From contig NC_086097.1 of the NCBI RefSeq assembly GCF_963921235.1, forward strand, positions 135,472,001-135,536,000: a DNA stretch of 64,000 nt, read 5' to 3'. The stretch is from Mobula hypostoma. Its lineage: Eukaryota. Each line of letters opens with the position of its first letter. The first letter of the stretch is position 1. The notes under the pieces are model-generated. The model was not told the origin of the DNA, did not search any database, and saw only the letters and a program-made list of their open reading frames with translations. A program made the position numbers and the translations under genes. Positions 4,690-61,401 of this stretch are shown here, one piece after another.

Positions 4690-5318
4690 AATGGGACAGC
4701 TTTTCTGAACATCTACGCTCTGTCCGCCAGAGAAAGCAGGATCTCCCAGTGCCACACATTTTAATTCCACATCCCATTCCCAGTCTGACATGTCTATCCA
4801 CAGCCTCCTCTACTGTAAAGATGAAGCCACACTCAGGTTGGAGGAACAACACCCTATATTCCGTCTGGGTAGCCTCCAACCTGATGGCATGAACATTGAC
4901 TTCTCTAACTTCCGCTAATGCCCCACCTCCCCCTCGTACCCCATCCGTTGTTTATTTTTACACACACATTCTTTCTCTCACTGTCCTTTTTCTCCCTCTG
5001 TCCCTCTGACTATACTCCTTGCCCATCCTTTAGGTTTTCCCCTCCCCCTTGTCTTTCTCCCCGGGCCTCCTATCCCATGATCCTCTCATATCCCCTTTGC
5101 CAATCACCTGTCCAGCTCTTGGCTCCATCCCTCCCCCTCCTGTCTTCTCCTATCATTTTGGATCTCCTCCTCCCCCTCCCACTTTCAAGTCTCTTACCAA
5201 CTCTTCCTTCAGTTAGTCCTGACGAAGGGTCTCGGCCTGAAATGTTGACTGTACCTCTTCCTAGAGATGCTGCCTGGCCTGCTGCGTTCACCAGCAACTT
5301 TGATGTGTGCTGCTTGAA
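4690..5318 (+). mobile_element. Penelope-like element 3' fragment (GIY-YIG endonuclease end plus terminal repeat)
   Basis: Translates to FSEHLRSVRQRKQDLPV and, after a frameshift, HFNSTSHS and LEEQHPIFRLGSLQPDGMNIDFSNF; followed by a pyrimidine-rich tract and a hammerhead-containing repeat. Confidence 0.85.
5215..5250 (+). ncRNA. Minimal type I hammerhead ribozyme motif (Penelope-associated)
   Basis: AGTC-CTGACGA-agggtctcggcct-GAAA-TGTT-GACT; both core boxes intact and stem I AGUC/GACU pairs. Confidence 0.7.
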
Positions 5319-6013
5319 TGAGTGATGGCTCTATTTATCCATGCTTGGTAAAATATTCACCTACCCACCATTGCACTGAACGGCTGATGACGTCATTGGT
5401 TCTCCCTTTGATGAAGTAGGGTGGGGAGGTGGGACAGTGCCTCGGAGGCTGCTGCCAGCCCCAAAGTCGAGGCAACTAGAATCATAGAGTTGTGGAATGA
5501 AACCACACCCTTCGGCCCAGTTTCTCCATGCTGACCAGGGGTTCTCCCATTTGATCGATATCTGTCCAAACCTTTCCTATCCACGTAATTGTCCAAATGC
5601 ACCAGGTACTTTATGCTTCTACTAAATTATGAGTTTTAACTACATTACCCCAATATCAGAAAAACCCCAGACTTCCTCCCACCCCATTCCTTTATAGGTC
5701 TTTTGCTCACATTTGTTTGAGAGCCAAAGTTGGGGCTAACATGGAACATCACAGTATCATACACAAAGTGCTGGATGAACTCAGCAGGCCAGGCAGTATC
5801 TATGGAAAAAAGTACAATCATAGCATGTTTGCCATGTTCCTGGGACTGCTGCTCTTCAGACATGTCACAAAGCCCAAGAATGGACAGGACAGGAAAGATT
5901 TAGAGGTATGTGGGACACACAGAGGCAAATACGAAGCTACATTGGTCAGTGTGCATGAATTGTGCAGACGGGCCTATTTCTGTGCTGAATTACCCTATGT
6001 CAGTGATTCATCG

Positions 6014-6049
6014 AGTCCTGATGAAGGGTCTCGGACTGAAACGTCAACT
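6014..6049 (+). ncRNA. Minimal type I hammerhead ribozyme motif
   Basis: AGTC-CTGATGA-agggtctcggact-GAAACGTC-AACT; core intact, with mismatches in stems I and II. Confidence 0.65.
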
Positions 6050-7069
6050 GTTTATTCTTTTCCATAGATGGTATCAGACCTGCTGAGTTTCTCCAGCATC
6101 TTGTGTGTCACAATAAACCCGATTCCAAAGAAGACTTAAATATTAGGAGGTACCAGAAACTTACTGTTTCAATTTAATAAACAAAATGTCACTGCTTTTC
6201 TACATCGGCACTCCTGTTCAGTATTCAAAGATTGCCTAGAAGTTTGGAAAATTTTGTATTAAGATTTCAGCTCAGCCTTGAACATTTGAAAAGGAAGATG
6301 AATGTTAAAGCCAAGAGCCAAATGAAAGCAGAAAGGTGGACACAAACAAAACACCGGAGGAACTCAGCAGGCCAGGAGCGTCTATGGAAAAAGAGTGAAC
6401 AGTCGACGTTTCGGGCCGAGACCCTTCTTCTGGTAGACACGCGGTTCCTTTGGCAAGTCAGAGCAGAAGGGATATGGCAGCGTGGTGAAATGCATGGGGA
6501 GTTGGTGCTGTTTGCACTCGAAAAGATAATGCTGCTGTTCAGGCCAATAAACTTCCGAAACTATGGAAGCACTGCAGATGAAGATGTTTCAGTTGTAGGG
6601 GTGCAGAAGGCCAGTACTGAGTGTCTAAAGCATAATCATTAATCATCTTCCACGGAATTCTGCACTCCAGAAGGCCGTGGGGGCTCAGTGTTTCATCTCA
6701 GTCTGATAATTAGCCATTAAGGGAAACAAGGGATACAGGGTCAGTGCAGGAAGGAAAAGCTGTGATAAAGGATCTTAATTGAACGATGGATCTGGCTTAA
6801 GGGTGTCAAATACACAAAAATTAGCTCTGTTGAATCCCAACTCAGAAAGAACAACTTGTTACTTACACAGGGTAGTGGAGGCAATTAACACAGGAGCATT
6901 TGAGGGGAGGTTAGATAAACACACGAAGGTGGAAGATGGCAGACTACCATTTGCCAGAGGTTCTTTAAGAATGATGAGAGGGACTGCCATGAAGGTAAAG
7001 GTGGAAATGAACCAGATTCGGACAATATTTCTCTAATATAATTGGGTACTAAAACTACAATGAGATGAA

Positions 7070-7530
7070 GCTGTTGGTATTATTAAACCAGCTGACCAGC
7101 TACATCATGGCTTCGTATGGAACTCCAATGCACAGGAACACTAGAGGCTACAGAGAGTGGTGGGCTCAGCCAGCTGCGTTGTGGGTACAGCTCTTCCCAC
7201 TAAGGACATCTACAAAGGGTTGACGTTTCAGGAAGGTGACATCTATCATCAGGGTAGGAAGTGAAGGAGCTCAAAGACCTACTCCTCGTTCAAAAAGTTT
7301 CTTCTCCACTGACATTCGGTTCTTGAACGACCCAAAAAACTCTAATTCTACCTTGAACGACATTTCTTTCCCTTCCTCAATCTTGTACTTGTGTCATTTG
7401 TCCTTTCTTGCACGGGTGTAAATTATAAGTGACTTGTGTTTGTTCTCGTCTTGTAATACACTGGGCTGATGCAGCTAAGAGCTCACTTTCAAGGCACTTA
7501 CTATGGATAGCTATGACAACAAACTTGCAT
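7070..7530 (+). mobile_element. Degenerate Rex/Babar-type LINE 3' fragment
   Basis: Remnant of the C-terminal region (..rLQRVVgsA..i.G..LP) and 3' UTR; a similar fragment lies at about 4170-4440. Confidence 0.6.
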
Positions 7531-7644
7531 TGCTGATTTTACTATAAAACTGGTGTAAAACTTGATTATTATGAGATGGGAAGCTATTTGGTCTCGTGCA
7601 TTCCTATACCTCTTCTATTTTGCATTTCTCTGTAATGTATTCTG

Positions 7645-12487: not shown

Positions 12488-12492
12488 CCATT

Positions 12493-21259: not shown

Positions 21260-22075
21260 TTTTGGACAATTTTAGACCCATTTCCAAACTTCCTTTTCTA
21301 TTAAGATTGTGTCCTTTCATTTAAGAAACATGGAAGGAGTTTGATTTCTTACAACATCTCAAGATGCAGAAAATTGACACACTTTTGTTTTTAGATGATT
21401 AGACTACTGTAAAGTACTCTTTTCGGGACTGCCTAAGAAAGGTATAAACTGGCCGCAACTTGTTCAAAATGCAGCAGCAAGAATCTTAACAAAAGAAAAT
21501 CTGAGCAATTTCACAGGTTTTGGCATCATTACATTAACTGTATACCAGACTGAATAATCTAGCTCCCCCATATATTTCGGAGGGTCTATACCCTTACATT
21601 CTGACTCATAATCTTAGATCCACAAATACTGGTTTGCTTAGTGTTCCTAGAGCCAAGCATACAAGAACTGCAACACACATCAGAGTTGCTGGTGAACACA
21701 GCAGGCCAGGCAGCATCTCTAGGAAGAGGTGCAGTCGACGTTTCAGGCCGAGACCCTTCATCAGGACAAGAACTGGTGGTGTGGCCTTTTGCTCTTAAGC
21801 ACAAACAGTCTGGAACAGTCTACTGAGATACATCAGGCTAGTACTCTGGAATGTTGCAAAACATTTCTATAAACCTACATTTTTTAATTTCGCCTACTTA
21901 GAGGATCACTTACTGCCTGTTGATGTTGATTACATTTATATAATTTGGTAAATTCAATTACATTTTATTCCATATAATCTTTTAATTTTGACTCACATCT
22001 TTATGACTACTTTGATTTATCTTTACAATCTTTGTAAAGCAATTCGAGCCTGCATCTTAATGTATGAAAGCCACC
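21260..22075 (+). mobile_element. Degenerate, internally deleted L2-clade LINE
   Basis: LDNFRPISKLPFL and RLDYC..LFSGLP...QLVQNAAARILT. Confidence 0.75.
21671..21765 (-). mobile_element. Short Penelope terminal-repeat insertion with intact hammerhead core (21734-21767)
   Basis: Perfect 10-bp TSD acaagaactg (21661-21670, 21766-21775); minus strand reads gtc-CTGATGA-agggtctcggcct-GAAACGTC-gac. Confidence 0.85.
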
Positions 22076-23078: not shown

Positions 23079-23649
23079 AGAGGGCTTGGGGAATTAAGAA
23101 CCCGAGAGCCTGGTGCTCCCAAGCACTAAAATAAAAAATTAAGTCCTTTTGCTTCAATTGGGTGAGCAGACAAAACCAATGACTTAGCTAAACAATTACA
23201 CCAGCTTTGGCATTAGATATAATGCTTTACTTTGGCACCATTTCTATTTTCTATTGTGATCCTGCAATACCAGTCAGCATGGAACTCAATGGGATTACCG
23301 GCCAGTGGGTTATGTATCACCTACACATCCTACCCCGCTTACAAACTCCCAATTTATGTACATACAAGTGTTTGAGACCGGCACAAAATTGCAAATATCA
23401 TCTGCTGTGTGGGGATTGGGTGGCAGCCGTATCCCTGACTTGCAAAAACTGTTCCGGTTATGAACAGTTCACAAGGACAGAACTTTACCATTAGATTAGA
23501 TTAGATTACCATGATTACCATGACCAGGGAGTAATCTCTACGGAGGACAGACAATGATCAGGGGAAAGTATAAAGCCCTCTCATCATAAGGAGTGCTTGC
23601 CTGCTCTTTCTCCTACAAAAAGAATGAAGTAACAAAGAAAATAAAACTC

Positions 23650-24362
23650 ACTACCAGTCTGAGCACCAAACAGTCCTTCCAGGTGAGGCGACACTTCAGT
23701 TGTGCGCCTGTTAGGGTCATCTACTGGGTCCGGTGCTCCTGGTGTGGCCTCCTGTGTGTTGGTGAGACCTGACGCAGATTGGGAGACCACTTCGTTGAGC
23801 GCCTGCGCTCTGCCTGCCAGAAAAAGCGGGATCTCCCAGTGGCAAGCCACATCAATTCTACTTCTGGTACGTCTCTCCATGGCCTCCTCTACTGCTGCGA
23901 TGAGGCTACACTCAGGTTGGAGGAGTAACACCTTGTATTCCATCTGGGTAGCCTCCAACCTCATTGCATAAACATCGATTTCTCAAACTTCTAGTAACTG
24001 ATCCCCCCCCCCCAACCATTCGCCATTCCCATTTCCTTACCTGCCCATCACCTCCCACTGGTGCTCCTCCCCACTTCCATGTCCTTCTGTCCTCTCCTAT
24101 TAGATTGCCTCTTCTCTAACCCTTCATCTCTTTCACCAATTGACTTCCCAGCTCTTGATTTCACCCTTCCTGTTTCACCCATCACCCCCCCGCCACCTTC
24201 ATGTCTGACTTTTCATCTCTTTTTCCAGTCCTGATGAAGGGTTTCAGCCTGAAACGAAGACTGTTTACTCTTTTCCATAGTTCTGCCCGGCCTGCCGACT
24301 TCCTCCAGCATTCTGTGTGTGTTGCTCTGATTTCCGGCATCAGCAGATTTTCTCTTGTTTGA
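23650..24362 (+). mobile_element. Penelope-like element 3' fragment
   Basis: GVIYWVRCSWCGLLCVGET.RRLGDHFVE (GIY-YIG); terminal repeat with a mutated hammerhead at 24226-24263. Confidence 0.85.
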
Positions 24363-34374: not shown

Positions 34375-34765
34375 GTTTCCTTTGAGATTCCCTTGTCCAT
34401 TCATCCCTCCCCACTAATCTCTCTCCTGGCACTTAACTCTGCAAGCCAAAATGCTGCACCTGCCCATTCACCTCCTCCCTCATCTCCGTTCTGGGCCCCA
34501 AGCAGTCCTTGCAAGCGAGGCAACACTTCACCCAAGAACCTGCTCAGGTCATCTACTACTTCCAGTGGTCCCGACGCAGCCTCTTCTACATTGGTGAGAC
34601 GTGACGTAGGCTGAGGACTGCCTTGTGGAGCACCTTCACTCCATCTGCATAAAGCGGGATTTCCCAGTTGCCAACCATTTTAATTCCAATCCCCATTACC
34701 ATTCCAATATGTTGGTCGATGGGCTCCTCTACTGCCATGATAAAACCATTCTCAGGCTGGAGATA
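34375..34765 (+). mobile_element. Penelope-like GIY-YIG fragment
   Basis: SLFYIGET and EHLHSICIKRDFPVANHFNS. Confidence 0.8.
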
Positions 34766-35305
34766 TGTAGCCCACATCCTGACTACTGTTTGGAGACCTG
34801 TACATAACTACCATCAGGGTCTTTTTACCCTTGAGGTTTCTTAACTCTACCCAGAAGGATTCTACATCTTCTAATGCTTTGTCACCTCTGAGGATTTGAT
34901 TTCACTTTTACCAACAGAGCCACACCATCTGTCTGGCTACCTGCATGTCCTTTCAATACAAAGTGTATCCTTTAATATTAAGCTCCAAACTATAATCTTC
35001 TTTCAGCCACGACTCAGTGATGCCCACATCATAACCGCCAATCTCTAACTGTGCTACAAGATTATTTACCTTATATTTGAATGCACAGTAAACAGAATAA
35101 CACCTTCAGTCCTGTATCGATCTCTCTTTACAATTTTATCCCCCTGTTACACTGCAACTCATTCCACTGACTGCAATTTTGCCCCATCACCTGCCTGTCA
35201 AACTTCTTGACAATCTCACTACACAATGCCTCTGCTTATAAACCAACAGACCTATCCCTCGGCCCTTTCATTCTGGATCCCACCGCCCTGCCAATTAGTT
35301 TAAAC

Positions 35306-37094
35306 CAGAGTATCCCAAACTTTTTTAGCCCAATACCCCCCCCAAATAATTGTCAAACTTGCCAGGATCCCCCAAAGCAGCTTCATACTTGCTAATGCCC
35401 CTCTTAGGCACAATATATTTCCCAGCGTCCACAAAGTGTAAAAACATGTCTACCATATGCCAACATGAGAAAAATGATTCAGCTTTAAATTTGTATTTGT
35501 CTTTAAACCTAGCTTACACAATAGCTGTGTACTATACAGCAGCTTCAATATCAATATGATCCTTGAGCTTGATGGGTTTTAGCAAGAGTTGAAATATCTT
35601 ATTCAAGTTGTGACAGCAAAAGCCTCAAGTTGCCATGCATTGCAATGTCCAAGCAGTTTCTGTTTTTTTGTGAGTATGTGGTTCACTGCACTGAAGCCTC
35701 TTTCAACAAGGTAGGAGAAAGGAAATGCAATGAAGAACAGTTTGGCTCTTCTCCAAAGACCAGGAAACTTTGTATCACAGTGCAATCACATACCAAAAAA
35801 AGCCAACATTTTTGAAAAGCATTTTGGCTTCGTCATCATTCTGAATTTTGATCATTTCTTCTTGCAAGCTCTCTTCCTATTTTCCACTTTGCAAAGAAAT
35901 GTGTTAATTACCCAGTCTGGAATTTCCAGATCATTCAAACCCTTGAATCAATTCTGAAAATCTTTCTTCAGTGACTGTAGGTATAAGCAGTACTCTTGCA
36001 AATCACTGCCTGTGAAAGAGAATGCCATACCTTCCATGCAGGGAAACTGTGAGAACATTCTTCTCCCAATGTTTTGGTTATATGTTTCCAATGAAAGTGG
36101 ACACTGCACTCATCCAGTTGTGTCCCAAATTCTGTTTTTTGTAGCTCTGTGCAGAGTTGATGCTCAATGTCTTCACTCATTTGGTCATTACAACAGCTAC
36201 AACATTATTACTCAGAGCAACTGATTTTAAGATATTGGTATCCTTTTTGAGAATAGTGGTGAGCACTTCTGACACAGCAGGCATTATTAATCTTTTGCAA
36301 ATTGAATAAGATTTTCCACACTTTGCTGTCAGTTTGGAAATGTTATAAGAAGCAATGAGACTACTATCAAGGTCATTTTTAGCCTTCTTAGCCAACGACT
36401 CAAGTGTGAAAGATTTTCAAATGCTTCTTTCATCTTCTGGAACTGAGTAATACCATAAGTAGCGTTATCAGGGTGTCTTTTACAGAAGTGGTCCTGCAAT
36501 CCTGATAAACACAAAATAATCTGCAGATGCTGGGGTCAAAGCAACACTCACAACACGCTGGAAGAACTCAGCAGGTCAGGCAGCATCCGTGGAAACGTCG
36601 ACTGATCGTTTCCACGGATGCTGCCCGACCTGCTGAGTTCCTCCAGCGTGTTGTGAGTGCTGCAATCTTGACAGTTTCACGGCTTCACTAGACAGTACAG
36701 TATTACAAATAAGACACATGGGGCATCGCTGACCTGACAGGAACTAAATAAAACCAAACTTCAGGTATGTAACATCGTATTGACGCACTTTCTGTAGTTT
36801 CTGTTTCTTAGCAGGTTAGAATTCAAGGCTTCACCACCTTCAGACTCAGAGATCGCGCTGTACATATTTATGTATCATTAACGGCGCTAAATTAAAATTA
36901 AAAAAAACCGGCAAACTGGGAATGCCCATCGGATGTTGACGGCAGTGAGTCCACACAATTGAGCAGGTCTCGTGCCTCAAGTTAGGGGGCCACTTACTGA
37001 TCCTCCTCCCCAAAGAATCTTGAATCTCCCCCCTCAAAACCATTTCCCCTAATGCCCCCAAAGGGCATGTAACTGCCCCCATTGTGAAACTCTG
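35306..37094 (-). mobile_element. Internally deleted hAT (Charlie/Buster, ZBED5-like) transposon
   Basis: TIRs cagagtatcccaa / ttgtgaaactctg; 8-bp TSD gtttaaac / gtttaatc; transposase remnants ASYNISKL.AKCGK, EFGTQLDE and FPFSYLVERGFS. Confidence 0.9.
36506..36659. repeat. Inverted Penelope terminal-repeat insertion forming a 53-bp hairpin
   Basis: Arms 36545-36597 and 36607-36659 with 2 mismatches; 12-bp TSD ctgcaatc(c/t)tga at 36494-36505 and 36660-36671. Confidence 0.9.
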
Positions 37095-39510: not shown

Positions 39511-39954
39511 CTGAAAGATTTTGCTGTTTATGTTTCAGGTCAAGACACCTCAACTGGACTGGATTGGCCCAGGTGAATGGTCTCTACCAGAAATATCATC
39601 TATCCATTTCCCTCCACGGATACTGCCTAACTTGCCGAGCTCCCGCAGCATTTTGTTCTTTGCCATAAGATTATCCATACTGTTAGAAGGAATGGGAAAG
39701 GGATATTTTATTTTATTACACAGGAAGGTCAATAGTCCATTTGGCTTATTACAAGGGGGTTGGAACATGAAGTCAATCTTATTGCTGTAGTATAGGGTTT
39801 TATTGAGTTCGCAACTGGAATATTTCAGATACATTTAGTCTTTCTACCCAAAGTATATTTGTCTTAGGATTGTAAAGACGATTCAACAAAAAAAACACGT
39901 TTATATGGCTCCTGCAGAGGAGGGGTCCTATCAGTCAGACTTCAATTCAAAAAT

Positions 39955-42590: not shown

Positions 42591-45166
42591 CATAATTTTA
42601 TATAAACATATTTGAAATGGCCAATTACTTTATGACATTTAAAATAAGTACTCTTGCTTAATTTAATATCAACGCTAAAAAGGGGCACTCCCTTCTTAAA
42701 GGAACCATTTATAACAGACATCATTTCTCAGTTCAGCTAAATTATTAAACCTCTACAATGCATTTAGATTGGAAAATTAATATGCCCAGTCATTGCTATG
42801 AACATCTAGTGGCAACATACTCTACACATCTTGTTACATCCAGTAACATGATCTGCATGAGAAAGACATCGGCTACAGACATTCAGAATCTACATCCTTT
42901 AAAAAGAGAGTTCATGGTGTCACATTACAAGGTGTAGGAGGTGGTATTTTGCCACGCAATAAGAACAGCTCATATTTGGTCCATCAGTACCAGACTGGCC
43001 CTGCAAGATTTAGGAATAATTTGTCCTTTGCAATGAAGGCAACATTTTTGACTGTCAACATCTAGTTGCCGATGAGCTATTTGATAGATTATTTATAGTG
43101 TCTGTTATACAAGTAGGTGCAATGGTGCTCGCTGACAGACGGAAGGATATCAACGTACTGACGTGCTGCATGGTACCACAGCGGTTTTGTGTAAAACTAT
43201 TATAGTGCCTGCGACCTGGGTTCAATTCTGCCGCTGCCTGTAAGATGCCTGTACACTCTTCCCGTGATCACCGGCGTTTCCTCCCACATTCCAAAGACGG
43301 ACGGGTCAGTAGGTTAACTGGTAACATGGGTGTAATTGAGTGACATGGGCTTGTTGGGCCGGAAGGGCGTGCTACTGTGATGTGTCTCTAAATAATGCAA
43401 AAGGCAAAATATTTCAGAATCAATTGTCTAATTCAACATCAAGTCCTGAACGCTGCAACACTTCCAAATGGATGTAATCCATAGAAAGAAGCAACGCAAA
43501 CAGAGTGGTAATGGGGACACTTCCGTCGTCATTGTTTTGGGGCACAGCACATAAAAGCAAGAAAGTCACATTGCAGCAGTTTAAAAATCTGGTTAGGCCA
43601 CAGTGAGCATTGTGTGCAGTCTGGTCACCCCACTTCAGGAAGGATGTGGCAGCTCTGGAAAGGGTGCAGAAAAGGTTAAACAAGTTATTGCCTGGATTGG
43701 AGAATATCTGCTACAAGGAGAGTTTGGACAAACTTACATTGTTTACACAAACTTAGGTTGTTTAAAATTACGAGAGGTGTGCATAGGATAGACAGCAGAG
43801 TCTTTCCCTCCAGGGTAGAAATGTCAATTAGTAGAAGATACAGATTCAAGGTTATAGAGGTCAAAGTCTAAAGGAGATGCATATGACTTTTTTTAAGAAA
43901 CGGTGGCAAGTGTGTGGAGAACTGCCATGGGAGGTGGTGGAAGCAGATATGATAGCAACTTGTAAGAGGCACACAAACAAGCAAGGAATGGAGAGATATA
44001 ATCCACATGCAGGCTGATGGGATTAGTTTGATCAGCACTAATGGTGGGTCAAAGAACCAGCTCCCACGTGTACTGTTCTTCATTCTGAGAGATTCAAGAA
44101 ATCCAAGATCGTTTAATGTCATCTCCAGTACACGGGTGTAAAGAATAATGAATTGATTGTTACTCCAGATCCACATTACAAAACACATTAAAATAAAGAA
44201 CACAATAAATAAAAATCATAATCAATATAAATGCACGGGACAGCTTACATACACAGGTTGATTATTGGTCCATTGTACAGTAGTGTCTGTACACAAGGTG
44301 ACTGACAGGAAGTTATAAGGTAGTGGTGGTGGGGCTGTGGTGCATAGAGATGTTGAACAGCTTCACTGCTTGGGGAAAGTAACTGTTCTTTTGAGTCAGG
44401 GGGCCCTGGTGTTGATGCTACATAGCCACCTCCCTGATGGGAGCAGGACAAACTGTCCACGTGTAAGGAAGAAGAGCTTATGTTGGACTTTACTAAAACA
44501 GTGAATAAGGCCAGAGTGGGAGGGGGACAAAGTCAAAAGGATAGGTGACTAGAAACTCAGGGTCACCTCTTTGAATTGAACAAAAGTACCTTCTTACTCT
44601 GATCTCTATCATTTCTTTTTAGTCTTGATAAAAGGGCCTTGGCCCGAAATCTCAACTGTTTACCCTTTTCCATAGATGCTGCCTGACCTGCTGAGTTCCT
44701 CCAGCATTTTGTGTGCGTTGGTTTGGATTTCCAGCACCTGCAGATTTTCTCATGTTTGTCGCCTAATGTTTGCCTGGGGATGTGATCGCCTGGTGAGCAG
44801 TGAATACACGGATGGCCGGTGATGTTGTGCAACTCAGGAGGTAATCAGTCTCCCCTGCTGTTACGGTTAATCTCTAACTGTGAGAACTAGCCACCTCCCC
44901 CTCCCCCCATGATATGTCAGAAGCATCCAACAATAACTCTGCTGATAAAGGCAAAGGGAGAAAGTAGTTGCTGTGACAAGATGAACTGCAGTCAGTCACT
45001 TAAGACTGCAGCAGCTCCTCTCCCATCTCTGATCTCTACTACCCAGGGGAAGGGGGGCAGCAGATACAAGGGACACCTTCACCAGTAGACTCCTCACTAA
45101 GTCACATCCCATTCGGACTTGGGAATCACTATGAATACACTCTGGCACAGTTAACACCAAACTCAC

Positions 45167-45251: not shown

Positions 45252-46889
45252 CTGTAGAGGAATAAAAGAAAATGACCAGAGCCCTCTTGCTGGAGGATGT
45301 GACTGATAGCTTTTAAGTCCAAGCTGGATGCTGTCCTGCAAAAGTCTGCCAGCTGCTATTTTCATATGAATTAGATCAATAATTATTCAGAGCATTTATA
45401 TGGTGGCATAGCCGTTAGTACAACACTATTACAGTGCAGCTACCCCCAGGTTCAATTTCACTGTCGCCTGTGAGGAGTCTGTACATTCTCCTTGAGGGTT
45501 TCCTCCGGGTGCTCTGGTTTCCTCCCACATTCCAAAGACGTACAGGCTAGTAGATTAATTGGACAGCACTGGGTCTTTGGACTGGAAGAGCCCATTATCA
45601 TGCTGTATCTCCAAATTAAAACAAAAAACAGATAATCCTGGAAATGCACAATGGGTTGGGCAGCACGTGAAGAGAGAGAGAGCAGTTAATGTCGCAGGAC
45701 AATAACCTTTCGCAGAACTCGTCAATCTTTCCGATTCCCAGCTTCCATAGTATTTTACTTACTTTTTGAAATACAAGCGCAAAGTCAGAGAAAATTGCTG
45801 CTTCCCAATTTTATCTGAAAATACCTTGTTTCACCTCTGTAGGGGAAATTACTGTTCCCCCAACTCCTGACCTCTTAGGGGGCAAAAACAGCTTAGGACA
45901 TAGAAGAGTGCAGAAAGGCCCTTTGGCCCATGAACTAATTAAAATAATGAATTCTAATCGCTTCAGTCAGTACAAGGATCCTATCCCTACCTGCATGTTA
46001 AAGTACCGAAGAGCCACTTAAAACACCTTTATTGTGTCTGCCTCCACCACCAACTCTGACAGCACGTTCCAGGCATTAGTGTCTTTAAAAAAAGACATCT
46101 TCTTTGAACTTTACTCCTTTCACCTTAAATGGATGCCTTCTACTATTTGGTGTTCCTACACTGAGAAAAAGATTATGACTATGTCCCTCACAATTTTATA
46201 AACTTCTATCAGGTTCTCCCCACCCCAGTCTCCAATGCTCAGAGAAGACAACCCCGGTTTGTCCATGCTCTCCGTATTAATCCTGACTCAGGTCTCAGAC
46301 CTGAAGTGCTAACTCTTTCACTCCCCACAGACACTGCCTAACTTGCTGGGTGTTTTCAGCATTTTTGGGTTTTGTTGCAAATGTACCAACCGTGGCCATG
46401 CAGTAGGGAAACCACTGCACTCTGGTCGTCTTTGGGGGAAGGGGTGGGGTTAATGATCCAATGGACTCTAGAACAAGTTTATTTACACGTAGCCAGTGAA
46501 TGTCCAGTCCCAAAATTCCTATCCCTGTGTAGTCGGGGAAAAACTGAATGGCCTAATTTTCAAAGCCATGTGTTCTAGCTGGAGCACCCACTTACTGAAA
46601 AAATTCAATACGTAGATGACACATTGATTGCTCTGTTCATAAACAGTCATCATCAGCAAATGTTGAATACAATCCCATTAAACACCAATAAATGACCCAT
46701 CTGATAAGTGTTTACATCATTTCTGCCAAAAAAAAATCTATTTTACATGCTCTTGATCTCCTCAGTAACTTCCAATTTCCCTGGCCTGACCGGCTCATCA
46801 TCATCCCTATACACCTCCATCCCCTGTCAAAAGGTCTGAGCTTAGAGCTCTCCACTTCTCTGAACAAAAGACCCAACTAGTTCCCCTCC

Positions 46890-48345
46890 ACCTCAGCCTT
46901 CCTCTGTCTGGCAGAGCTGTTCCTCGCCCTCAACAGTTTTCCCTTCAGCTCCTCTCACTTTCTCCAGACTCAAGGGATAGCTAGGGCCCTCAGCTATGCC
47001 TGCCTATTCATTGCCTACGTAGAACAGTCCATGCTCCAAGCTTTCCCTGGTAATACTCCCAAACTCTTCCTGCATTACATTTGACGACTACATTTTTGCT
47101 GCTTCATGCACCTATGCCGAGCTTGCCAGTGTCACCAACTTTGCCAGCTTCCACCCTCCTCTTAAATTTACTTGGTCCATCTCTGAAACGTCCCTCCTCT
47201 TTCTCGATCTGTCTCCATCTCTGGAGATGAACAGTCAACTGATATCTTTTATAAACCTACTGATTCCTATGGTTATCTCCACTACACCTCTTCTTACCCC
47301 ATCTTCTGTTAAAAATGCTATTGCCTTTTCTCAGCTGCATCTGTTCCCAGAATTGGGCTTTCCTTTCCAGGATATCAGAGATGTCCTCCTTCTTCAAAGA
47401 ATGGGGTTTCAATCTCTCCACTATTGATGCTCGTCTCACCTGCATCTCCTCCATTTCCAAAACATCCACACTCACCCCATCTTCCTGCCACCTTAAGTGA
47501 TAACCACCCCATTAGCCTCTGCATCCAAAACATTATCCTCTGCAATTTCCACCATCTCCAAAGGGATCCTACCACCAAACATATCTTTACCTCCTCTCCC
47601 TCCACCCCCAGCTTTCCGCAGGGATCGCACCTCCACCATTCCCTTGTCCATTCATCCCTCCCCTCTAAACTCCCTCCCAGCACGTGGGTTAAGTGCTACA
47701 CTGGGATCTGTTGGGGTTGTCTTTTGTATCTGGCTCTCTTGATGTGGCTTCCTCTATATTGGTCAGACATCATAAATTGGGGGGCCACTTTGTCGAGCAC
47801 CAGCAGAACTTCCCAGTGGCCAAACATTTTAATTCTGATTCCCATTCCCATTCTGACATATTGGTCCGTGGCTGCCTCTTGTGCCAAGATGAGGCCACCC
47901 TCAGGGTGGAGGAGCAACACCTTTATATTCTGTCTGGGTACCCTCCAACCTGGTGGCATGAATATCCATGTCTCCTTCCAAGTTAAAAAAACTTCTTCCT
48001 CCTCCCCTCTTCCTCTACTCCCCACTGTGGCCATTACCTCTTCTCACCTGCCTATCACTTCCCCCTGGTGCCCCTCCTCCTTCCCTTTCTCCGAGTCTTC
48101 TCTCTTCTTCTTCTATAAGAACCCTCCTTCTTCGGCCCTTCATCTTTCCCACCCACTTGGCTTCACCAGTCACATTCCAGCTATCCTCCTTCCCCTTCCC
48201 CCACCTTTTTATTCTAGTGCCTTGCCCTTTCCTTTCCAGTCCTGATGGATCCGAGTCTGAAGACAACCACCTCTTCTTTTCCATAGCTGCTGCCTGACCT
48301 GCTGAGCTCCTCCAACATTTTATGCATGTTGTCCTATTTTGAATT
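46890..48345 (+). mobile_element. Penelope-like element: RT, GIY-YIG and terminal repeat, degenerate
   Basis: FSFSSSHFLQTQG..SYACLFIAYVE, a frameshifted YIDD, and HFNSDSHSH...RVEEQHL. Confidence 0.85.
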
Positions 48346-49529
48346 TCTTGCTTCTGAACAAAAATGGACCGCCTGTGACAGATACTGGAAGAGTTCCAGA
48401 CAACATGAAGTTGCAAGCATTGGAAATGCAGAAAGATAAAGCCAACATCAAATATTTCACTGAAGCAGAATAAAACAGTGCATCAAAATGAGTGGTAGGA
48501 GGGTTCACCTTGGGATAATATTATAAACACAACCTGCCTCAGAACACTGCCCAGAAAGCACAATATTGGTTAACTGTGAGAAACGTTTTGTGAAACAGAA
48601 CCAGGAGCACTAAGACTGACGCTTCAGTGTGACTGTTGTCAAGGCAACATCAGATAGGCAGTAATTTGAAACTGAAGCCACAAAACCAAGTACCCACTTT
48701 TTTTAAAATAATTGGTCTTAATGTTTAATCCTAATACAGGGGTTCCCCACCTGGGGTCCGCAGCATAAAAAAAGACTGGGAGCCCCTATTCGAACAGAAG
48801 CAAACCTGAATGTTTATCTGAATATTTGCTGATTCTGAAAAAGTGGCCACAAAAGTAGCTGAAAGGCGTCAGCTCAATTAACAGCATGGCTTCAACTGAT
48901 GTAAATATACTCATAAACCGTGGGGCGCCACTGTAGCAAAGCAAATAGCGTGACACAGGGTGTCGGAGATAGGAGTTCAATCCTGGCATCCTCCCTGTGG
49001 AATGCGTGGGGTTTTTCCAGCTCCTTCGCTTTCCTCCCACAGTCCAAAGACGCAGCAGGTGGGTTAAATGGTTATTGTAAATCGTCCCTTGAGTAGGTTA
49101 GGGTTAAATTGGGATGGCCGGGGGCTACTGGGCGGTGTGGCTCAAAGGGCCTATTTCATGCTGTTATCTTTAATTTTAAAAAAATCAACACTGATGCTCA
49201 ACACAGAATCGTTGGACAGTTTTGAGAATTAATAATAGTATGACTGGGAGAAACTAAGGGCAAAATTTAACTCTTAATCACCCTGTGAGATTTGCACAGG
49301 AGATTTGAAGCAAGAATTGAGTTATCAGGTGTACAGCATCTTTTGATCGGCTGTTAAACCCATGAACTGATCATGTAAAACTGAATGAGGAAATTTGACA
49401 ATTTTAGAGTCAGGCAATTAATATTTGAAAGAAACAAGAACTCGTTAGCTGACTCCCCACCTCCCCCATCCCCAGATCGGCTGAGTCAAACATTCGAAAA
49501 GGTCAACTCAGATACAGTCAATCTGGTCA

Positions 49530-51960: not shown

Positions 51961-52692
51961 GGATTGTTTCTTGTTTGGAAATTGCATCATGCAAGATCTC
52001 AATATTTTAATTATAATCACCCACTGGTGGTATGAAAACTCTGGTGACAATCGCAGATGAGAACTCCCCAGGTAAAGAGAACAGACGGCATTCGAATGCG
52101 TTCTAGGTTGGAGGAACACAGGAGTTTGACAAAGTCGTCACATCAGAGCACTTTTTGCCTTTTCCAAATCAGTAGTTCGGTCCATCCTGTGAATCGAGAA
52201 GCCTTCAGGTCTGATCACAGCATCGTGGAATGCTGGGAGTAAGGCATGTCTTGGTCAAACATAGAACACAACAATCTCACATATCCAACAGCTAAACTAT
52301 GAAAGGCAGAACACAATTAAAACTTATTTTTATATGCAGAATGCATCAATCACCTTCCACCCTCTGCCTCACCTCTATACAGAACATTTTTTTCGATACA
52401 GGGGTCTCAATCCAAAACATCAACAGTTCCTTTGCTTCCACAGATGCTGCCTGACCTGTGTTCTTCCAGCACTATACTTTCTCACTCTAGATTCCAGCAC
52501 CTGCAGTCTCATGCCCCCTCTCCAACAATCAATGTGCTTTAGGTGGGGCCATTGTCTCACGGCTGCCACTGGCAGAAAGCCAAAGTCGCCCACAACCACG
52601 TTCAAGAAGAGCCAATTCCTTTCAACCATTTGGTATTTGAACTAATCAGCACAATCATAATCACTACAATTTAGCAACACTATGTCAACCTT

Positions 52693-53234
52693 TTTATTCA
52701 GGCAACTTCCCCCTTCCTTCTCAGTCCTGAAGAAGGGTCTCGGTCTGAAGCTTCGACTATACTCTTCTCCATAGATGCTGCCTGACCTGCTGAGCTCCTC
52801 CAGCATTCTGTCTGAGTTGCTTTGGATTTCCAGCAACTGCAGATTTTCTTGTGCTTGTGAATTACTACTCCACTGTGAAGTCTCTTCAAGGGATGCCTAT
52901 CCCGATTTAATCTCTCTTTCGACAGGGGTTCAGTGAAACCCTCTCTCTCTGCTCCCTGTGATCTCTGCTGCCCTTTGACTCCCTGACCACGTGCTCACCC
53001 AGACCTGTTATCACAGCCACATCTTCACTGATCGCCTTCCAGCTAGCCTCTCCCCCCCCTTCCATCTTTTATTCAGACATCTTCCCCCTTCCTTTCCGGT
53101 CCTGAAGAAGGGTCTTGGCCTGATAGGTCTACTGTTTACTCGTTTCCATAGATGCTGCCTGACCTGCTGAGTTTCTCCAGCATTTTGTGAGAGTTGCTTT
53201 GGATTTCCAGCAAATGCAGACCTTCTTGTGTTCG
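52693..53234 (+). mobile_element. Tandem Penelope terminal repeats with two decayed hammerheads (retrozyme-like unit)
   Basis: Direct repeats at about 52693-52860 and 53020-53234; CTGAAGA boxes at 52727 and 53102; 13-bp TSD-like flanks ctatgtcaacctt / ctatgaccacctt. Confidence 0.75.
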
Positions 53235-53662: not shown

Positions 53663-56600
53663 CTGCAGGTCAGGAAAATGTGAAAAAAGTGCACACCATC
53701 CCCAGATTTTGCTGATTCACCACCGGATGTGGAACGTCACTTGCAATACCGGACATAGCACCCTTCTCTGTTGCTGCTCAACCACAGTAATTATTAAGAG
53801 TCAACCATCCTATTGTTTCTGGAGTCAGACGTAGACCAGCCCCAGCAAAAGCAGACTTCCTCTTCTGAAGTGTTTATTAGTGAACAAAAGGTACTTATAT
53901 TTATTTGGAGATACAACGCAGAACAGGTCCTTTCCTTCCAGCAACCCACCCATCTAACTCTAGCCTAATCACAGGACATTTTACAATGACCGATTACCCT
54001 ACTAAACAGTGCGCCTTTGGCCTGTGGGAGGACACTGGAGCACCCGGAGGAAACCCGTGCGGGTCACGCAGAGAACTTACAAACTCCTTTCAGATGGTGG
54101 CAGCATTGAACTCCGAAATGCAGAGCTGTAATAGCGCTGACTAACCGTTACTGTAAAGGGATTTTAAAAAGACTATTGAATAGTTTAGTTAACTGTCATG
54201 ACAGGATTTGAACCCTTCTGTCTGGCTCTGACCGTGCCTCATAGCTGATAATCTTGTGCTGTCCTCTGGCTTCATTCCATTTGGCAGTCTCAATAACCCT
54301 CAAATAGGTGCACCACTAACCCCACCTTTGCCAAGGTTACACTTGCTAGAAAATTTAACTGAAGCAGAAACGTGCAATATCAAATAATATACAAAACCAT
54401 AAAATTGGAGATGAAGATCACAAGATATGCAAAAACCAGGTATATCCAAGTTGCTCTGAAGCAAAAGGGTTCAGTTTTATTCCAGTCACAGCCTGTATGA
54501 GAAGTCCACACTCGACAGTTACAAACTTGCGTAGGTACACAGTCATAGAATTCTCACCCAACGCATTTTGAGTGGTTTATAAAAAAAACTCACGGTAATG
54601 CTCAAAAAGCCAAGATGAGCACATATTTAGTCCAAACTTCACTCAAGTTGAATGTAAAGCCAGCACAAGTCGGTAATCCAATACCACCTGTTGAAAGTTA
54701 TCTGGAGAACATAGACCCTGCAAACACAGCTTTTGTCATCTCTCATTCTTCACAATCGCGCGTCCAAAATGGAGTATGTCAAGCGCTGATCAGTCTACCA
54801 GGACTGAATACATGCTTGGACATGTAGAAAGATGCATGCAATGCAACATCACTGCTCACAATAGCCTGATACATTTGTTCACATTTAGCTACTCCAGTTA
54901 AAATACAAGAACAGTTACATCAAGTAATTGCTGCACAACATTCAGTATTTGTAAGACTATTTTCTTAGACCTCTATGCATTCTACTCAGACATTACAAAT
55001 GAGTAGAGACAAGAGTTTGCAGACACTGGAATCTGGGGCAAAGAGCAAGAACTGTGAGAAGAACTCAGGGGGTCGCACAGCATCTCCTCTGACAAAGATG
55101 GCTCTTATTTTGAGTCAAAGTCCTGCACCAGGATATAATTGAGAATACTTTATTACGTCACACCTCTTGTAATCAATCTAAGCTTATTTCTGATTTGAAC
55201 ACTTGATTTTACAATAATTCAGCATTATAAAAGAGATTATGGGACATTACTTAAACACATATTAAGTAATTTGTGGGAGGAACTTCGCAGGCCAGGCAGC
55301 ATCTATGCAAATGAATGAACAGTCGATGTTTCGAAGGGTCTCAGTCCGAAACATCGACTACTTACTCCTCTCCATAGATGCTGCCCGACCTGCTGAGTTC
55401 CTCCAGCATTTTGTGTGTGCTGCTTGCTCTGGATTTCCAGTATCTGCAGAATTTCTTGCGTTTTAGATGAAGTAACAGTAATGTTTCTTCCTTCTAAATG
55501 ACCAGCCCTTTTTAGTAGGCCTAGAACCAGAGTCAGGGTTGTACAACACAGAAACACTGCCTGCAGCACGACACATCCGCCCTGATTTTTTTTTTTGCCC
55601 AACTGTACAAATCCCATGTTCCCCATTAGGACCATATCCTTCAATACCCTGCCAATTTAAGAGTTTAAATGATTCTTAAACGCAGTAACTAGTATAAGCG
55701 TTTCAACCAAAGGTTTTGCTCAACAACCCAGATATGAATTGTGCTTAAGTGTTACAGTCTCAAGTCACAGAGGATGGAAATGGGTGCTTTGGTTCGACCA
55801 GTCCGTGCCGACCAAGATTCATTATCTAAGTTAGTGCCATTAACCTGCATTTGGCCCATATTTCCCTAAGCCCTTCTTATCCATGTACCTGTCCATTCAG
55901 CTTACAAATAGTGTTATCTTTTCAAACCTTGGAATCTCTAACTTCAAATCAGTCTCTTAAATAGTTAAACCACATGGAAATACGTTCCAGACAAAACATC
56001 AGCAGGGCATTCAGTGAAGACACCCAACTTCCAGTATCAGCAGGAGCACCACTGGAAACTGTTAATGTTTAACTGCTGAAGCCAGAACAAAAATCAAAAC
56101 TGCAGACGCTGCAAACAGAAGCAGAAGATGATGGAAACACCCAGTGGGTCAGGCAGCGTTTGTAGAGAAAGAAATGCAAATATCCTTTCTGGTTAAAGAC
56201 CCTTTGTTAGAGTAGGAATTTAGATCTGATGGAAGGTCTTAAACCCAAAGCACGAACTGTCTTGCCACGGATGTTGCCAGATCTGATGAGCGTTTCTGCT
56301 TTTGTTACAACTGCGAATAGCCTTTGCCTTCAACTAATGGTCAGGATCGAGGATGTTGTAGACATCAGTGTAATTCATCAGTGATGGAATGATACACACT
56401 GAGAATATGCAACTGTAGCTCCCCATACTGGTGACAAGACCTTTGCAAAGTCAGCCAAGAAAAAAAACACTTTAGTCAAAACATTACCCCCCTAAATTTC
56501 ATAGAAATTCAACTTAAAATGTCCCAGAAAACACCACATTTCACATTGATATATCTGCGGTCAATGCAAAGTGAATGGAGTGTACACACAAGTTTTATAA

Positions 56601-58500: not shown

Positions 58501-58866
58501 GTTGGCAAAATAGGGGAGGATACTTTTAACGGCACGGGTGATGAATCAAGTTACGACTTCTTTTTAAACTGAGTACTTATTTTCAACTGCGTGAATAATG
58601 TGATACGCGACGATTTGCAGAGATGAATCCAGTTGCAACTTCGGTTTGTGAAAAAAAAAGTTCCAGGTCTAAGTGCATATCTCTAAATGTTTATTTACAG
58701 TGTGCGATATGTTGCGCAACGTCAATGAAATTGTAACTGCTGGAATCTGAAGGCAACACTAGAAGGGTAGATGAACTCAGGCCGTCGGACAGCATCTTTG
58801 GAGGGAGAAGCCAGTCAAGGTTTCTGGTCAGGGACAGGTCCTCACTTCTGGCGATATTTGAATCTT

Positions 58867-60198
58867 TAGATTAGATTATGAGAACACTCAGTCCACTTTT
58901 ATTGTCATTTAGAAATGCATACATGCATTAAGAAATGATACAATGTTTCTCTGGAGTGTTATCACAGAAAACAGGACAACCCAAAGACAGACCCAGGGGG
59001 TCAGTGTGGACATGGTGGAGGATTACAAATACCTGGGGATGCAAATTGATATAAACTGGACTGGTCAAAGAACACTGAGGTTGTCTACAAGAAGGGTCAG
59101 AGCTGTCTCTATTTCCTGAGGAGACTGAGGTCCTTTAACATATGCCAGACGATGCTGAGGATGTTCTACGAGTCTGTGGTGGCCAGTGCTATCATGTTTG
59201 CTGTTGTGTGCTGGGGCAGCAGGCTGAGGGTAGCAGACACCAACAGGATCAACAAACTCATTCGTAAGGCCAGTGATGTTGTGGGGATGGAACTGGACTC
59301 TCTCACGGTGGTGTCTGAAAAGAGGAAGCTGTCTAAGTTGCATGCCATCTTGGTCAATGTCTCCCATAATGTACTGGTTGGGCACAGGAGTTCAGCCAGA
59401 GACTCATTCCACCGAGATGCAACACTGAGCGTCATAGGAAGTCATTCCTGCCTGTGGCCATCAAACTTTACAACTCCTCCCTTGGAGGGTTAGACATCCT
59501 GAGCCAATAGGCTGGTCCTGGACTTATTTCATAATTTACTGGCATAATTTTACATATTACTATTTAACTATTTATGGTTCTATTACTATTTATTATTTAT
59601 GGTGCAACTGTAACAAAAACCAATTTCCCCCGGGATCAATAAAGTATGACTATGACTAATACTGACAGAACCACATAGTTATAACATATAGTTACAGCAG
59701 TGTAAAGCAATACCATAATTTGATGAAGAACAAACCATGGGCATGGTAAAAAAGTCTCAAGGTCCCCAAGTCAATCAGCTCCCTAGTCCCCGATAGCAGG
59801 CGGCAAAAGGGAGAAACTCCCTGCCATAAACCTCCAGGCACCGTCAACTTGCCGATGTCTTGGAAGCAGCTGACACTGAGTCCATCCATCCGAAAACTTT
59901 GAGCTTCTGACCGGCCCCTCCGATACAGCCTCCCGAGCGCCATCCTCTGCCGAGCGCCTTCGAGCTCGCCCCAGCCGCTGAAACAAGCAAAGCCAAGGAT
60001 TCAGGGCCTTCTGCTCCAGAGATTCCGGTTACCACACAGTGGCAGCGAAGCGGGCATTTCAGAAGTTTTCCAGATGTTCCCCCGTACTCTCACATCCGTC
60101 TCCATCAAAGCAGAATTGTGCACGGTCCCCTACTTGAGAGATAACAGATACCATCACCAAAGAGGCCGCGCGTGCTGCCGTCTCGCCGCCATCTTCCC
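58867..60198 (-). mobile_element. Non-autonomous non-LTR element with a nested Rex-type LINE 3' fragment (about 58990-59658, +)
   Basis: 5' end GGAAGATGGCGGCG, GC-rich body and (aatct)n tail; the nested part encodes KKGQSCLYFLRRLRSF...RMFYESVVAS and ends in (gactat)n. Confidence 0.65.
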
Positions 60199-60383
60199 CT
60201 CTTCCCCCATCTGGAGCAAAACTCAAAGCCCTCCAGGAATTTGTGGGATCAGCCCTTTATCACTATAACAGATCACCTCCCAGCTTCCAATACAATTCGA
60301 GCGTGTCGGGGGCAGAACTGAGTCTCAGTCGCTATTACTAAGGAGAAGGTGCTCGGGAAGCTGAAATGTCTGAAGGTAGATAA

Positions 60384-61401
60384 TTCACACAACATGCTGG
60401 AGGAACTCAGCAGGCCAAGCAGCATCTATGGGAAAAAAGTACAGTCAACGTTTCAGGCCAAAACCCTTTGGCAGGACTTGGGGAGAAAAAAGCTGAGGAG
60501 TAGATTTAAAAGGTGGGGGAAGGGGAGAGAGAATCAACCGGTGATAGGTGAAACCTGGAAGGGAGGGATGAAGTAAAGAGCTGGGAAGTTGATTGGTGAG
60601 ATGAGAGAGAGGGAAATGGAGAAGGGAGTGGTGGTTGGGGGGCATTACTGGAAGTTTGAGAAATTGATGTTCATGCAATCAGGTTGGAGGCTACCCAAAC
60701 AGAATATCTCCCAATCTACGTCGAGTCTCACTGACGTACAGGTGGCCACACCGGGAGCACTGAACACAGTAAGTGACCCCAACAGACTCACAGGTGCAGT
60801 GTTGCCTCATCTGGAAGGACTGCTTAGGGTGACTTCCTGTACATCGGTGAGACCCGACATACGTTGGGAGACTGCTTCGCCGAGCACCTACATTCCATCC
60901 ACCAGAACAAGCGGGATCTCCTAGTGGCTGCACATTTTAATTCCACTTCCCATTCCCGTTCAGATATGTCCATCCAAGGCCTCCTCCACTGTCGGGATAA
61001 GGCCATACTAAGGATGGAGGAACAACACCTTATATTCTGTTTAGGTAGCCTCCAACCTGATGGCATGAACATCGAATTCTCAAACTTCCGGCAATGCCTC
61101 CCCACACCGCCCCCCCACTTCCTTCTCCATTTCCCATCCCCTTTCCCTCTTCTCACCAATCAGCTTCCCAGCTCTTCACTTCATCCCTCCCCCTCCAGGT
61201 TTCATCTATCACCTGGTGTTTCTCTCTCCCTTCCACCCACCTTTAAAATCTACTCCTCAGCTTTTTTTCTCCAGTCCTACCAAAGGATTTTGGCCCGAAA
61301 CGTCAACCGTACTTTCCATAGATGCTGTCTGGCCTGCTGAGTTCCTCCAGCATTTTGTGCGTGTTGCTCAGATTTCCAGCGTCTGCAGACTTTCTCTTGT
61401 T
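60384..61401. mobile_element. Inverted Penelope composite insertion
   Basis: Minus-oriented terminal repeat and GIY-YIG pieces (60384-60830), then plus-oriented GIY-YIG and repeat (60830-61401); 13-bp TSD-like tgaaggtagataa / tgatggtagttaa. Confidence 0.85.

Follow-up and report, generated by a model that had tools for sequence, protein, structure and literature searches.

A minimal type I hammerhead motif in probable Penelope-like element relics across a 64-kb window of Mobula hypostoma DNA

The stretch of Mobula hypostoma DNA analysed here (64,000 nucleotides, hereafter the window) contains many copies of one repeat of about 100–140 nt, together with remnants of GIY-YIG reading frames (Table 1, in which PLE denotes a Penelope-like element and pLTR a pseudo-LTR). 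In a profile search of the 64-kb window, all 15 sites named in a first-pass annotation fell on copies of this repeat. The profile, built from 10 seed copies that match by construction, gave 38 matches at E ≤ 10, 31 at E < 0.06 and 25 at E < 1e-5, and the best match in the reversed window had E = 1.6; the 31 copies at E < 0.06 are those counted below. Ribozyme-derived motifs are indeed abundant, as had been claimed, with about one relic per 2 kb of the window, and most of the approximately 30 copies are decayed. The repeat reaches 60–105 nt beyond the predicted cut site and is longer than the annotation had described. The ten sites listed there as carrying a consensus all lie on repeat copies, but the exact consensus as written occurs at none of the ten; the more decayed versions placed at about 1209(-), 44620, 48238, 56227 and 63335 were all recovered as profile matches.

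Table 1. Features assigned in the window (strand "." for inverted pairs)
Positions	Strand	Feature	Basis
1183..1248	-	Older-subfamily copy; different helix II, U-A as first helix I pair	Profile search
3908..4095	.	Old divergent inverted pair; one-arm tail	
4692..5315	+	5'-truncated PLE: GIY-YIG remnant, pyrimidine-rich 3' UTR, pLTR end	
6011..6108	+	Solo pLTR end; full core, broken helices I and II	
6340..6435	-	Solo pLTR end; truncation cuts CUGA box, 3' half intact	
21670..21772	-	Solo pLTR end, best preserved; 5' truncation at helix I, short 3' end	
21734..21767	-	Minimal type I hammerhead motif	
23548..24361	+	5'-truncated PLE: GIY-YIG remnant and tailed pLTR end; U16.1 changed	
34386..34840	+	PLE linker (C-x3-C-x2-C) and GIY-YIG remnant, without pLTR	
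36507..36663	.	Divergent inverted pLTR pair, GAAAC microhomology joint; one-arm tail	
39514..39677	.	Old divergent inverted pair; interruption in one arm	
44616..44758	+	Tailed pLTR end; changes at C3 and G8	
46734..48356	+	Longest PLE remnant: reverse transcriptase, GIY-YIG, 3' UTR, decayed pLTR end	
52402..53232	+	Three independent pLTR ends, same strand, unrelated spacers; cores truncated or changed	
55276..55463	.	Divergent inverted pair, CUGA box absent from both arms; one-arm tail	
56096..56305	.	Old divergent inverted pair; one-arm tail	
60386..61403	.	Divergent inverted PLE 3' ends, each GIY-YIG and pLTR; cores changed, tail on + arm only	
63334..63470	+	Decayed pLTR end with tail	Profile search

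The repeat carries a hammerhead core in type I order (CUGANGA ... GAAA ... UH; positions are numbered by the established hammerhead convention), and the majority base is kept at all 11 core columns. The base between positions 9 and 10.1 is A in 11 of 12 copies, helix II opens with G10.1 in 12 of 12 and with C or U at 11.1 in 13 of 13, and the palindrome ACGU is the majority state of helix III. The core pattern matched three times in the window and not once in 100 shuffles. The intactness of the ten listed sites had nevertheless been overstated, as the core is complete (11/11 bases) at only three of them (5215, 6014 and 21734), and 21734(-) alone adds both stems and ACGU; among full-length copies the complete cores likewise number 3 of 10. 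At 5215 the palindrome is gone (AUGU, U17) and at 6014 both helices I and II are; single core changes occur at 24226 (U16.1>A), 52722 (A15.1>G) and 53097 (A14>U), several at 60442 (A6, G8) and 61272 (G5, A6, G8), and in the copies at 6401 and 55333 a 5' truncation runs through the CUGA box. A further pattern match at 7222-7252(-) was not counted to the family, since it lacks helix I and sits in unrelated repeat sequence.

The Rfam hammerhead covariance models found no match at E ≤ 1 on the window, nor at E ≤ 10 on 21650-21800, a miss that is expected because the motif lacks a monomeric helix III, whereas a minimal-hammerhead descriptor that includes the stems matched twice (C3 at 5219+ and 21764-), against 0.035 matches on average over 200 shuffles. 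A covariance model made from window copies returned 22 matches at E ≤ 1, its 12 training copies among them by construction, and no new families. The Rfam mir-1791 and psbJ matches at 36.5 kb correspond to the hairpin of an inverted pair, and the idea that the pLTR end folds in a special way over its full length was rejected (z from -0.5 to +1.4 in 5/5 copies).

Several lines of evidence connect the repeat to PLEs. As had been noted previously, copies lie downstream of GIY-YIG remnants; this holds for 5 of the 31 (5215, 24226, 48238, 60442 and 61272), and the repeat follows within approximately 170–300 nt at five of the six reading frame remnants. The closest relatives of these remnants are ray and skate proteins, from Mobula, Hypanus and Leucoraja. 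Pfam did not recognize the window's own GIY-YIG fragment, and the link runs through these relatives, the long ones of which carry RVT_1 and GIY-YIG; their tblastn alignments cover 46734-47984 as reverse transcriptase followed by a C-terminal GIY-YIG. The CX2-5CxxC linker between reverse transcriptase and endonuclease, a Neptune feature shared with Nematis, occurs in 46 of 50 long relatives and also at 34.4 kb. The 64-kb window contained no full-length element flanked by two pLTRs. A reading-frame start at the ATG that follows the pyrimidine tract found no match among 153 PLE-related proteins, and a conserved splice acceptor after this tract was rejected, as the AG is absent in some subfamilies. 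It is highly probable, in our judgement, that the repeat, in a ray-like cartilaginous fish, is the 3' pLTR end of an endonuclease-bearing PLE whose linker is of Neptune type, and that the copies are relics of this element. Together with the fit to the published consensus, this context upholds the original reading of a minimal type I hammerhead motif, with palindromic helix III, carried by PLEs, and sequence comparison supports its identity with the minimal type I hammerhead already known from these elements.

The ends of the copies are informative about how they arose. Two classes of 3' end were observed, at +59 to +70 in 10 of the 31 copies and at +98 to +105 in 12, and the 5' ends are ragged and run into the PLE 3' UTR and GIY-YIG sequence. 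The predicted cut site is spanned by 27 of the 31 copies, and none starts or ends there. Six inverted 5'-truncated pairs lie in the window, with a tail of about 35 nt on one arm in all five readable pairs. Truncation at the 5' end, inverted copies and a 30–40 bp tail at one end are already known for PLEs (PMC8557442). The short units might instead constitute a separate non-autonomous family, a SINE or non-LTR retrozyme spreading via hammerhead-cut circular RNA. Such a family would suit the 26 of 31 copies without an upstream reading frame remnant and the three same-strand copies clustered within 830 bp, and retrozymes are reported from one chondrichthyan genome (bioRxiv 10.64898/2026.07.22.740005). 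However, no monomer is delimited by the cut site, no relevant tandem array of hammerhead-bearing monomers was found in the window (the spacers of the 52402..53232 cluster are unrelated), no tRNA head was found on the repeat, and the ragged 5' ends reach PLE sequence; we consider this origin extremely improbable.

After insertion, the copies appear to have decayed as ordinary sequence. Changes are concentrated at CpG columns (37/119, 31%) compared with the remaining columns (141/1215, 12%; p = 1e-7), and the 3 of 10 intact cores, against approximately 2 expected, fit neutral decay. Changes affected 8/107 core, 12/173 stem and 121/935 tail columns (p = 0.12 for the core); we ascribe the lower core and stem values to subfamily differences in the tail, from which selection after insertion is not fully separable.

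Covariation in the stems was compared within and beyond the window. Among 12 aligned window copies it did not rise above shuffled alignments: helix I and II pairing was 86.7% compared with 85.6% (144/500 shuffles), and for two-sided stem changes the count was 46/500 shuffles. In repeats of other organisms with the same core, helix I, which was outside the search pattern, showed covariation in 17 of 29 families, all different from the window family, compared with 11% shuffled (0/5000). An alternative reading is that the hammerhead-shaped motif is no longer catalytic in this lineage and is retained in the pLTR for protein binding, promoter activity or translation. This reading would accommodate the lack of insertions at the cut site, and in the anole PLE cleavage is dispensable for in vitro insertion and no RNA-seq reads end at the site (PMC11167929); Naiad PLEs also thrive without canonical hammerheads (PMC8557442). 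Nevertheless, column by column the majority sequence retains NUH and every catalytic position, 78 of 81 related motifs from elsewhere have C or U at H17, and the anole motif does cleave and loses its activity on core mutation (PMC11167929). Such a non-catalytic role is, in our estimate, very unlikely.

It had also been proposed that intact sense copies such as 21734(-) could act on host pre-mRNA. This copy offers the best case, having CUGAUGA from 21764, an extra A, a 4-bp helix II (G10.1.U11.1), GAAA, the retained ACGU and a predicted cut between 21737 and 21736. A CpG island at about 58.0–58.5 kb, together with a minus-strand signal-peptide-like reading and GT donor, would, on this sequence reading, place it in sense orientation; 6401(-), which lies 15 kb away on the same strand, could contribute its intact 3' half; the anole motif is protein-assisted (PMC11167929); and intronic hammerheads have been domesticated in amniotes (PMC7761336). 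A dimer, the PLE protein or chaperones might then permit cutting and alter host expression. Against this, helix I of 21734(-) has only 3 bp (21767-21765 with 21736-21734), and helices I and II are predicted at 1–5% with 30–150 nt of flank by a folding model that omits Mg2+, tertiary contacts and protein. A double hammerhead is likewise predicted to be disfavoured (-8.7 compared with -15.6 kcal/mol for two monomers in a nearest-neighbour calculation with the same omissions), and in published assays minimal hammerhead monomers remained uncleaved and dimers were weak. The window holds no fully intact minus-strand partner, and the copy, with 91 of 98 bases identical to that at 5215 and from the same young subfamily, is intact because it is young. 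To the left of the CpG island no strand bias was seen (13 minus and 14 plus copies). Nor is the host gene confirmed by an internal exon or homologue: Pfam on all 411 open frames of at least 55 aa gave LINE domains and weak matches only, scans for splice sites with approximate weights yielded no convincing internal exon, and the candidate first exon had 0 homologues and uninformative atlas matches. The proposal was not supported: an effect of the repeats on host RNA is unlikely, and there is only a slim chance that intact sense copies cut host pre-mRNA.

An extension of this idea is that the long pre-mRNAs of batoids contain half-hammerheads of both kinds, enzyme and substrate, in large numbers and that the PLE protein, as a chaperone, enables cleavage of nascent host RNA in cis or in trans. 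Stem-intact motifs occur about once per 30 kb in the window. If it were true, which we think most doubtful, the transposon would form a genome-wide, inducible RNA-cleavage system, active whenever the element is expressed, and host cleavage would leave its mark as a loss of intact sense copies from introns.

We favour an explanation based on the PLE itself, in which master elements would keep the motif under selection and the motif would cleave weakly, as a dimer and/or helped by the element protein, at some stage of the RNA. Reverse transcription may start at two preferred sites, 60–105 nt past the cut site, on template RNA that is uncut (or religated) at the cut site. It would usually stop early and therefore leave scattered short pLTR ends and inverted pairs. 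The inserted copies would then be methylated and undergo neutral decay, as relics without a host role.

Domesticated amniote hammerheads are single-copy, are conserved across species and fold as monomers. In contrast, the window copies are high-copy, decaying and without a monomeric helix III; the possible position of a core within an intron is a point of likeness to the intronic and 3' UTR hammerheads of amniotes (PMC7761336). A much closer match is provided by the minimal type I hammerheads (min-HHR) in the pLTRs of metazoan PLEs (Cervera and De la Pena 2014, PMC4209133), which likewise have a U-rich lead-in, a short helix I, CUGANGA with one extra base, a G opening helix II, GAAA, a two-pair palindromic helix III (ACGU) and NUH, and occur mostly as dispersed single copies of truncated PLEs with close opposite-strand pairs. 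The G10.1.U11.1 of the window motif is also present in published min-HHR families (PMC4209133, Fig. S3 text). The Schistosoma families have 7–8 bp in helix II, compared with 4 bp here, which resembles the coral and oyster rows, and no cartilaginous fish is listed in Table S1 or among the Fig. S3 rows examined (PMC4209133). The density in the window, 31 relics in 64 kb, greatly exceeds the 4,000–9,000 descriptor matches per genome in coelacanth and Xenopus (PMC4209133), with differing counting methods.

The Poseidon PLE of Anolis carolinensis (Frangieh et al. 2024, PMC11167929) likewise has a hammerhead in its pLTR, two downstream start sites for reverse transcription that give an optional 30–40 bp tail, uncut RNA as the insertion substrate and extension of both DNA strands, and the ends of the window copies relative to the cut site match this element. 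Unlike Poseidon, the window element has a Neptune/Nematis-type zinc linker. Animal non-LTR retrozymes (bioRxiv 10.64898/2026.07.22.740005) are likewise PLE-derived non-coding repeats with a type I hammerhead; they form tandem arrays of fixed monomers, whereas the window copies are dispersed, 5'-ragged and continuous with PLE coding sequence. The window motif adds no new kind of ribozyme and is an ordinary representative of the known PLE hammerhead type. PMC7761336 and PMC8557442 leave the function of PLE minimal hammerheads in vivo unsettled. A lineage with this many dated copies would allow strand bias in introns, the decay of cores with age and the position of insertion ends relative to the cut site to be measured with high power, and such measurements could reveal whether cleavage occurs in vivo and whether the host pays a cost for it.

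The repeat, found throughout the window, is with high probability the 3' pseudo-LTR (pLTR) end of a Penelope-like element (PLE), as judged from its motif, coding context, insertion ends and decay, and its hammerhead would, by analogy with the known family, cleave weakly and in a dimer- or protein-dependent manner in the RNA of the master element. The hammerhead motif occurs far more often than chance allows. All 15 sites named in the first-pass annotation fall on matches to a profile made from ten copies and run on the window, which gave 38 matches at E<=10; of these, 31 had E<0.06 (16 on the plus and 15 on the minus strand) and 25 had E<1e-5, and the top match in the reversed window reached only E=1.6. 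The core pattern matched three times against none in 100 shuffles, and a descriptor with helices I and II matched twice (with C3 at 5219(+) and at 21764(-)), where 200 shuffles gave 0.035 matches on average. Extrapolated from this one window of animal DNA (GC 43%, CpG observed/expected 0.34), the counts correspond, per gigabase, to about half a million relics and about 30,000 motifs with intact stems, in line with the earlier suggestion of very many ribozyme-derived motifs. Other mobile elements in the window include a near-intact young LINE (table below).

Features located in the window
Feature	Position	Strand	Remark
LINE ORF1	within 9470-13518	-	SGNH/GDSL esterase, 341 aa frame
LINE ORF2	within 9470-13518	-	AP endonuclease and RT, 1012 aa frame
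Decayed stretch	35530-36500	-	looks, by eye, like hAT-type transposase remnant; no Pfam match
AT-rich open frame	63542-64000	+	153 aa, continues past window end; taken to resemble L1/Tx1-type ORF2 C-terminus; no Pfam match
Readable inverted pairs	3908-4095, 36507-36663, 55276-55463, 56096-56305, 60386-61403		one arm with far 3' start, other near
Copy	6014	+	core complete; both stems lost
Copy	5215	+	core complete; palindrome reads AUGU, U17
Copies	24226, 52722, 53097, 60442, 61272		one to three core changes each
Copies	6401, 55333		cut short through CUGA box
Young-subfamily hairpin	21715-21735	-	7/8 pairs, directly after helix I
Young-subfamily hairpin	5250-5270	+	7/8 pairs, directly after helix I
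CpG island	57815-58500		observed/expected 0.95 (58.0-58.5 kb)
Candidate first exon	57992-57815	-	59-codon signal-peptide-like frame, ending at phase-1 GT donor

The repeat reaches 60-105 nt beyond the predicted cut and, on the upstream side, into a pyrimidine-rich tract and then coding sequence. The frame at 60828-61088 had three hits among 13 candidates: one each in Mobula (75%), Hypanus (71%) and Leucoraja (60%). These proteins match Pfam GIY-YIG only at scores under its curated cut-off, and the fragment from the window gave no Pfam match by itself. Among four longer relatives scanned, GIY-YIG exceeded the cut-off in two and RVT_1 was present in three. A tblastn search with relatives located six coding remnants in the window, five of which have the repeat ~170-300 nt downstream, as the first-pass annotation had noticed for GIY-YIG remnants. 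The CX2-5CxxC linker, a mark of Neptune and Nematis PLEs according to PMC8557442, is seen in the window at 34.4 kb and in 46 of the 50 long relatives; by this linker the element may be called Neptune-type. Judged by its transposon proteins, the host would be a ray-like fish. Hammerhead retrozymes are reported from one chondrichthyan in a 2026 preprint (10.64898/2026.07.22.740005). We regard it as exceedingly improbable that the repeat is a separate retrozyme or SINE family.

Relative to the cut site, the 3' ends of the 31 copies lie at +59 to +70 (10 copies), +98 to +105 (12) or elsewhere (9); 27 copies span the site, four start 7-20 nt past it and none starts or ends exactly there, copy ends being local-alignment ends uncertain by a few bases. 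There are six divergent inverted pairs, and in all five with both outer ends readable a ~35-nt tail is carried by one arm only; this split between far and near starts suggests that the two DNA ends are primed at different sites of the RNA. PMC8557442 describes 5'-truncated copies in inverted orientation and a 30-40 bp tail on one side as hallmarks of PLEs, and PMC11167929 traces the tail of the anole PLE to reverse transcription that starts at two internal sites of an uncut RNA template. A circular, religated RNA would give an identical end pattern here. By analogy with the known family, cleavage would not be required for the insertions seen in the window. One inversion junction (36592-36612) has a 5-bp microhomology between the hammerhead GAAAC and its complement just downstream. 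Many solo copies have 5' ends no more than ~35 nt upstream of the cut site, within or bordering the hammerhead fold, and these stops may reflect RT stalling or a detection limit.

Copy intactness was overstated in the first-pass annotation: the consensus it wrote is matched exactly at none of the ten main sites, and all 11 core bases are kept at three (5215, 6014 and 21734). The sole copy passing every intactness test is 21734(-), where helix I has 3 bp. It is identical to 5215 at 91 of 98 bases, with four of the seven differences at CpG, and the two form a young subfamily, which explains why they pass; their hairpin after helix I is lacking in other subfamilies. Decay was counted in 16 of the 31 copies (main subfamilies), each compared with a reference. 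Cells differing from the reference numbered 37/119 in CpG columns and 141/1215 in other columns (p=1e-7), both rates being inflated by subfamily differences, position 11.1 included; C>T or G>A made up 35 of the 45 changes at CpG columns, N7 counted among these. Core columns were changed in 8/107 cells against 121/935 for unstructured columns, which is not significant (p=0.12), and the neutral expectation for a complete core (~0.2) agrees with the 3/10 observed.

In 12 aligned window copies, covariation did not exceed that of shuffles (86.7% paired against 85.6%; 144/500), three pairs had two-sided changes (46/500 shuffles) and slid structures paired at just 19-45%. This covariation result counts against the structure reading; an excess among window copies is not expected, because copies decay after insertion. 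A non-catalytic role for the motif is, in our judgement, very unlikely. In two old copies, 1209(-) and 45721(-), the first pair of helix I is U-A where the others have C-G. At least 124 metagenome loci, probably animal host DNA, matched a pattern of the same core plus the helix II base, defined without helix I. Among the matches listed, a helix I of at least three Watson-Crick pairs is present in 52 of the 81 motifs that are distinct (16% in shuffles) and, counted by flank-defined family, in 17 of 29 (11% in shuffles, 0/5000), the fourth helix II pair forms in 31 of 39 (50% shuffled), a PLE protein match lies within 300 nt of 37 of the 124 loci, and the tail of the window repeat is absent from all 124. 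The metagenome covariation supports the motif class, not the activity of the window family. By their flanks, the loci fall into at least 29 families that share this minimal hammerhead and show clear covariation in helix I; many lie next to remnants of a PLE endonuclease.

Intact sense copies such as 21734(-) had been proposed to act on host pre-mRNA. The island and its minus-strand frame suggest a candidate gene on the minus strand whose first intron is long; the island, which has further donor-like sites on both strands, is likely a gene start and possibly bidirectional. No homologue of the candidate first exon and, in the window, no internal exons were found. Copies left of this putative gene show no strand bias, if the gene is real (13 sense, 14 antisense). 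For 21734(-), folding models that leave out Mg2+ and protein put the double-hammerhead dimer at -8.7 kcal/mol, two monomers at -15.6 and the best non-catalytic dimer at -23.9; when 30-150 nt of flank is included, they predict helices I and II at 1-5%. The closest partner of 21734(-) on its strand is 6401(-), at a distance of 15 kb, of which the 3' half alone is present. The disfavoured double fold, rarely predicted stems and absent strand bias argue against action of hammerhead copies on host RNA, to which we give very little credence. At 44660-44680 and at other sense pLTR ends, helix I is followed by a pyrimidine tract and AG, then ATG. Such a site receives a high score as a splice acceptor, and the frame stays open to the tail's end. 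In Hypanus, one isoform listed in a database for a host kinase-like gene (P0002) consists mostly of PLE sequence, and exonisation may be of greater consequence for hosts than cleavage is.

The hammerhead class itself was already described in 2014, and no new class is present here. Our literature search, with subscription papers mostly outside it, found no report of minimal hammerheads in cartilaginous fish. According to Cervera and De la Pena (2014, PMC4209133), monomers showed no cleavage and dimers weak cleavage; dimer cleavage is also credited to Lunse et al., as cited in PMC6765202. Dispersed single motifs from truncated PLEs and opposite-strand pairs are described in the same 2014 text. 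Their consensus, as given there, comprises a U-rich sequence, helix I, CUGANGAH, the helix II opening G, GAAAN, the palindrome and NUH, and the window majority sequence agrees with it at every point; with PLE remnants upstream, the motif is best read, as first proposed, as a PLE-type minimal type I hammerhead. Position 11.1 is T in 9/13 copies and G12 is G in 14/14; because symmetric CpG decay would strike both alike (p=0.004), G10.1.U11.1 is an inherited subfamily state, and it is also present in several of the rows published in PMC4209133.
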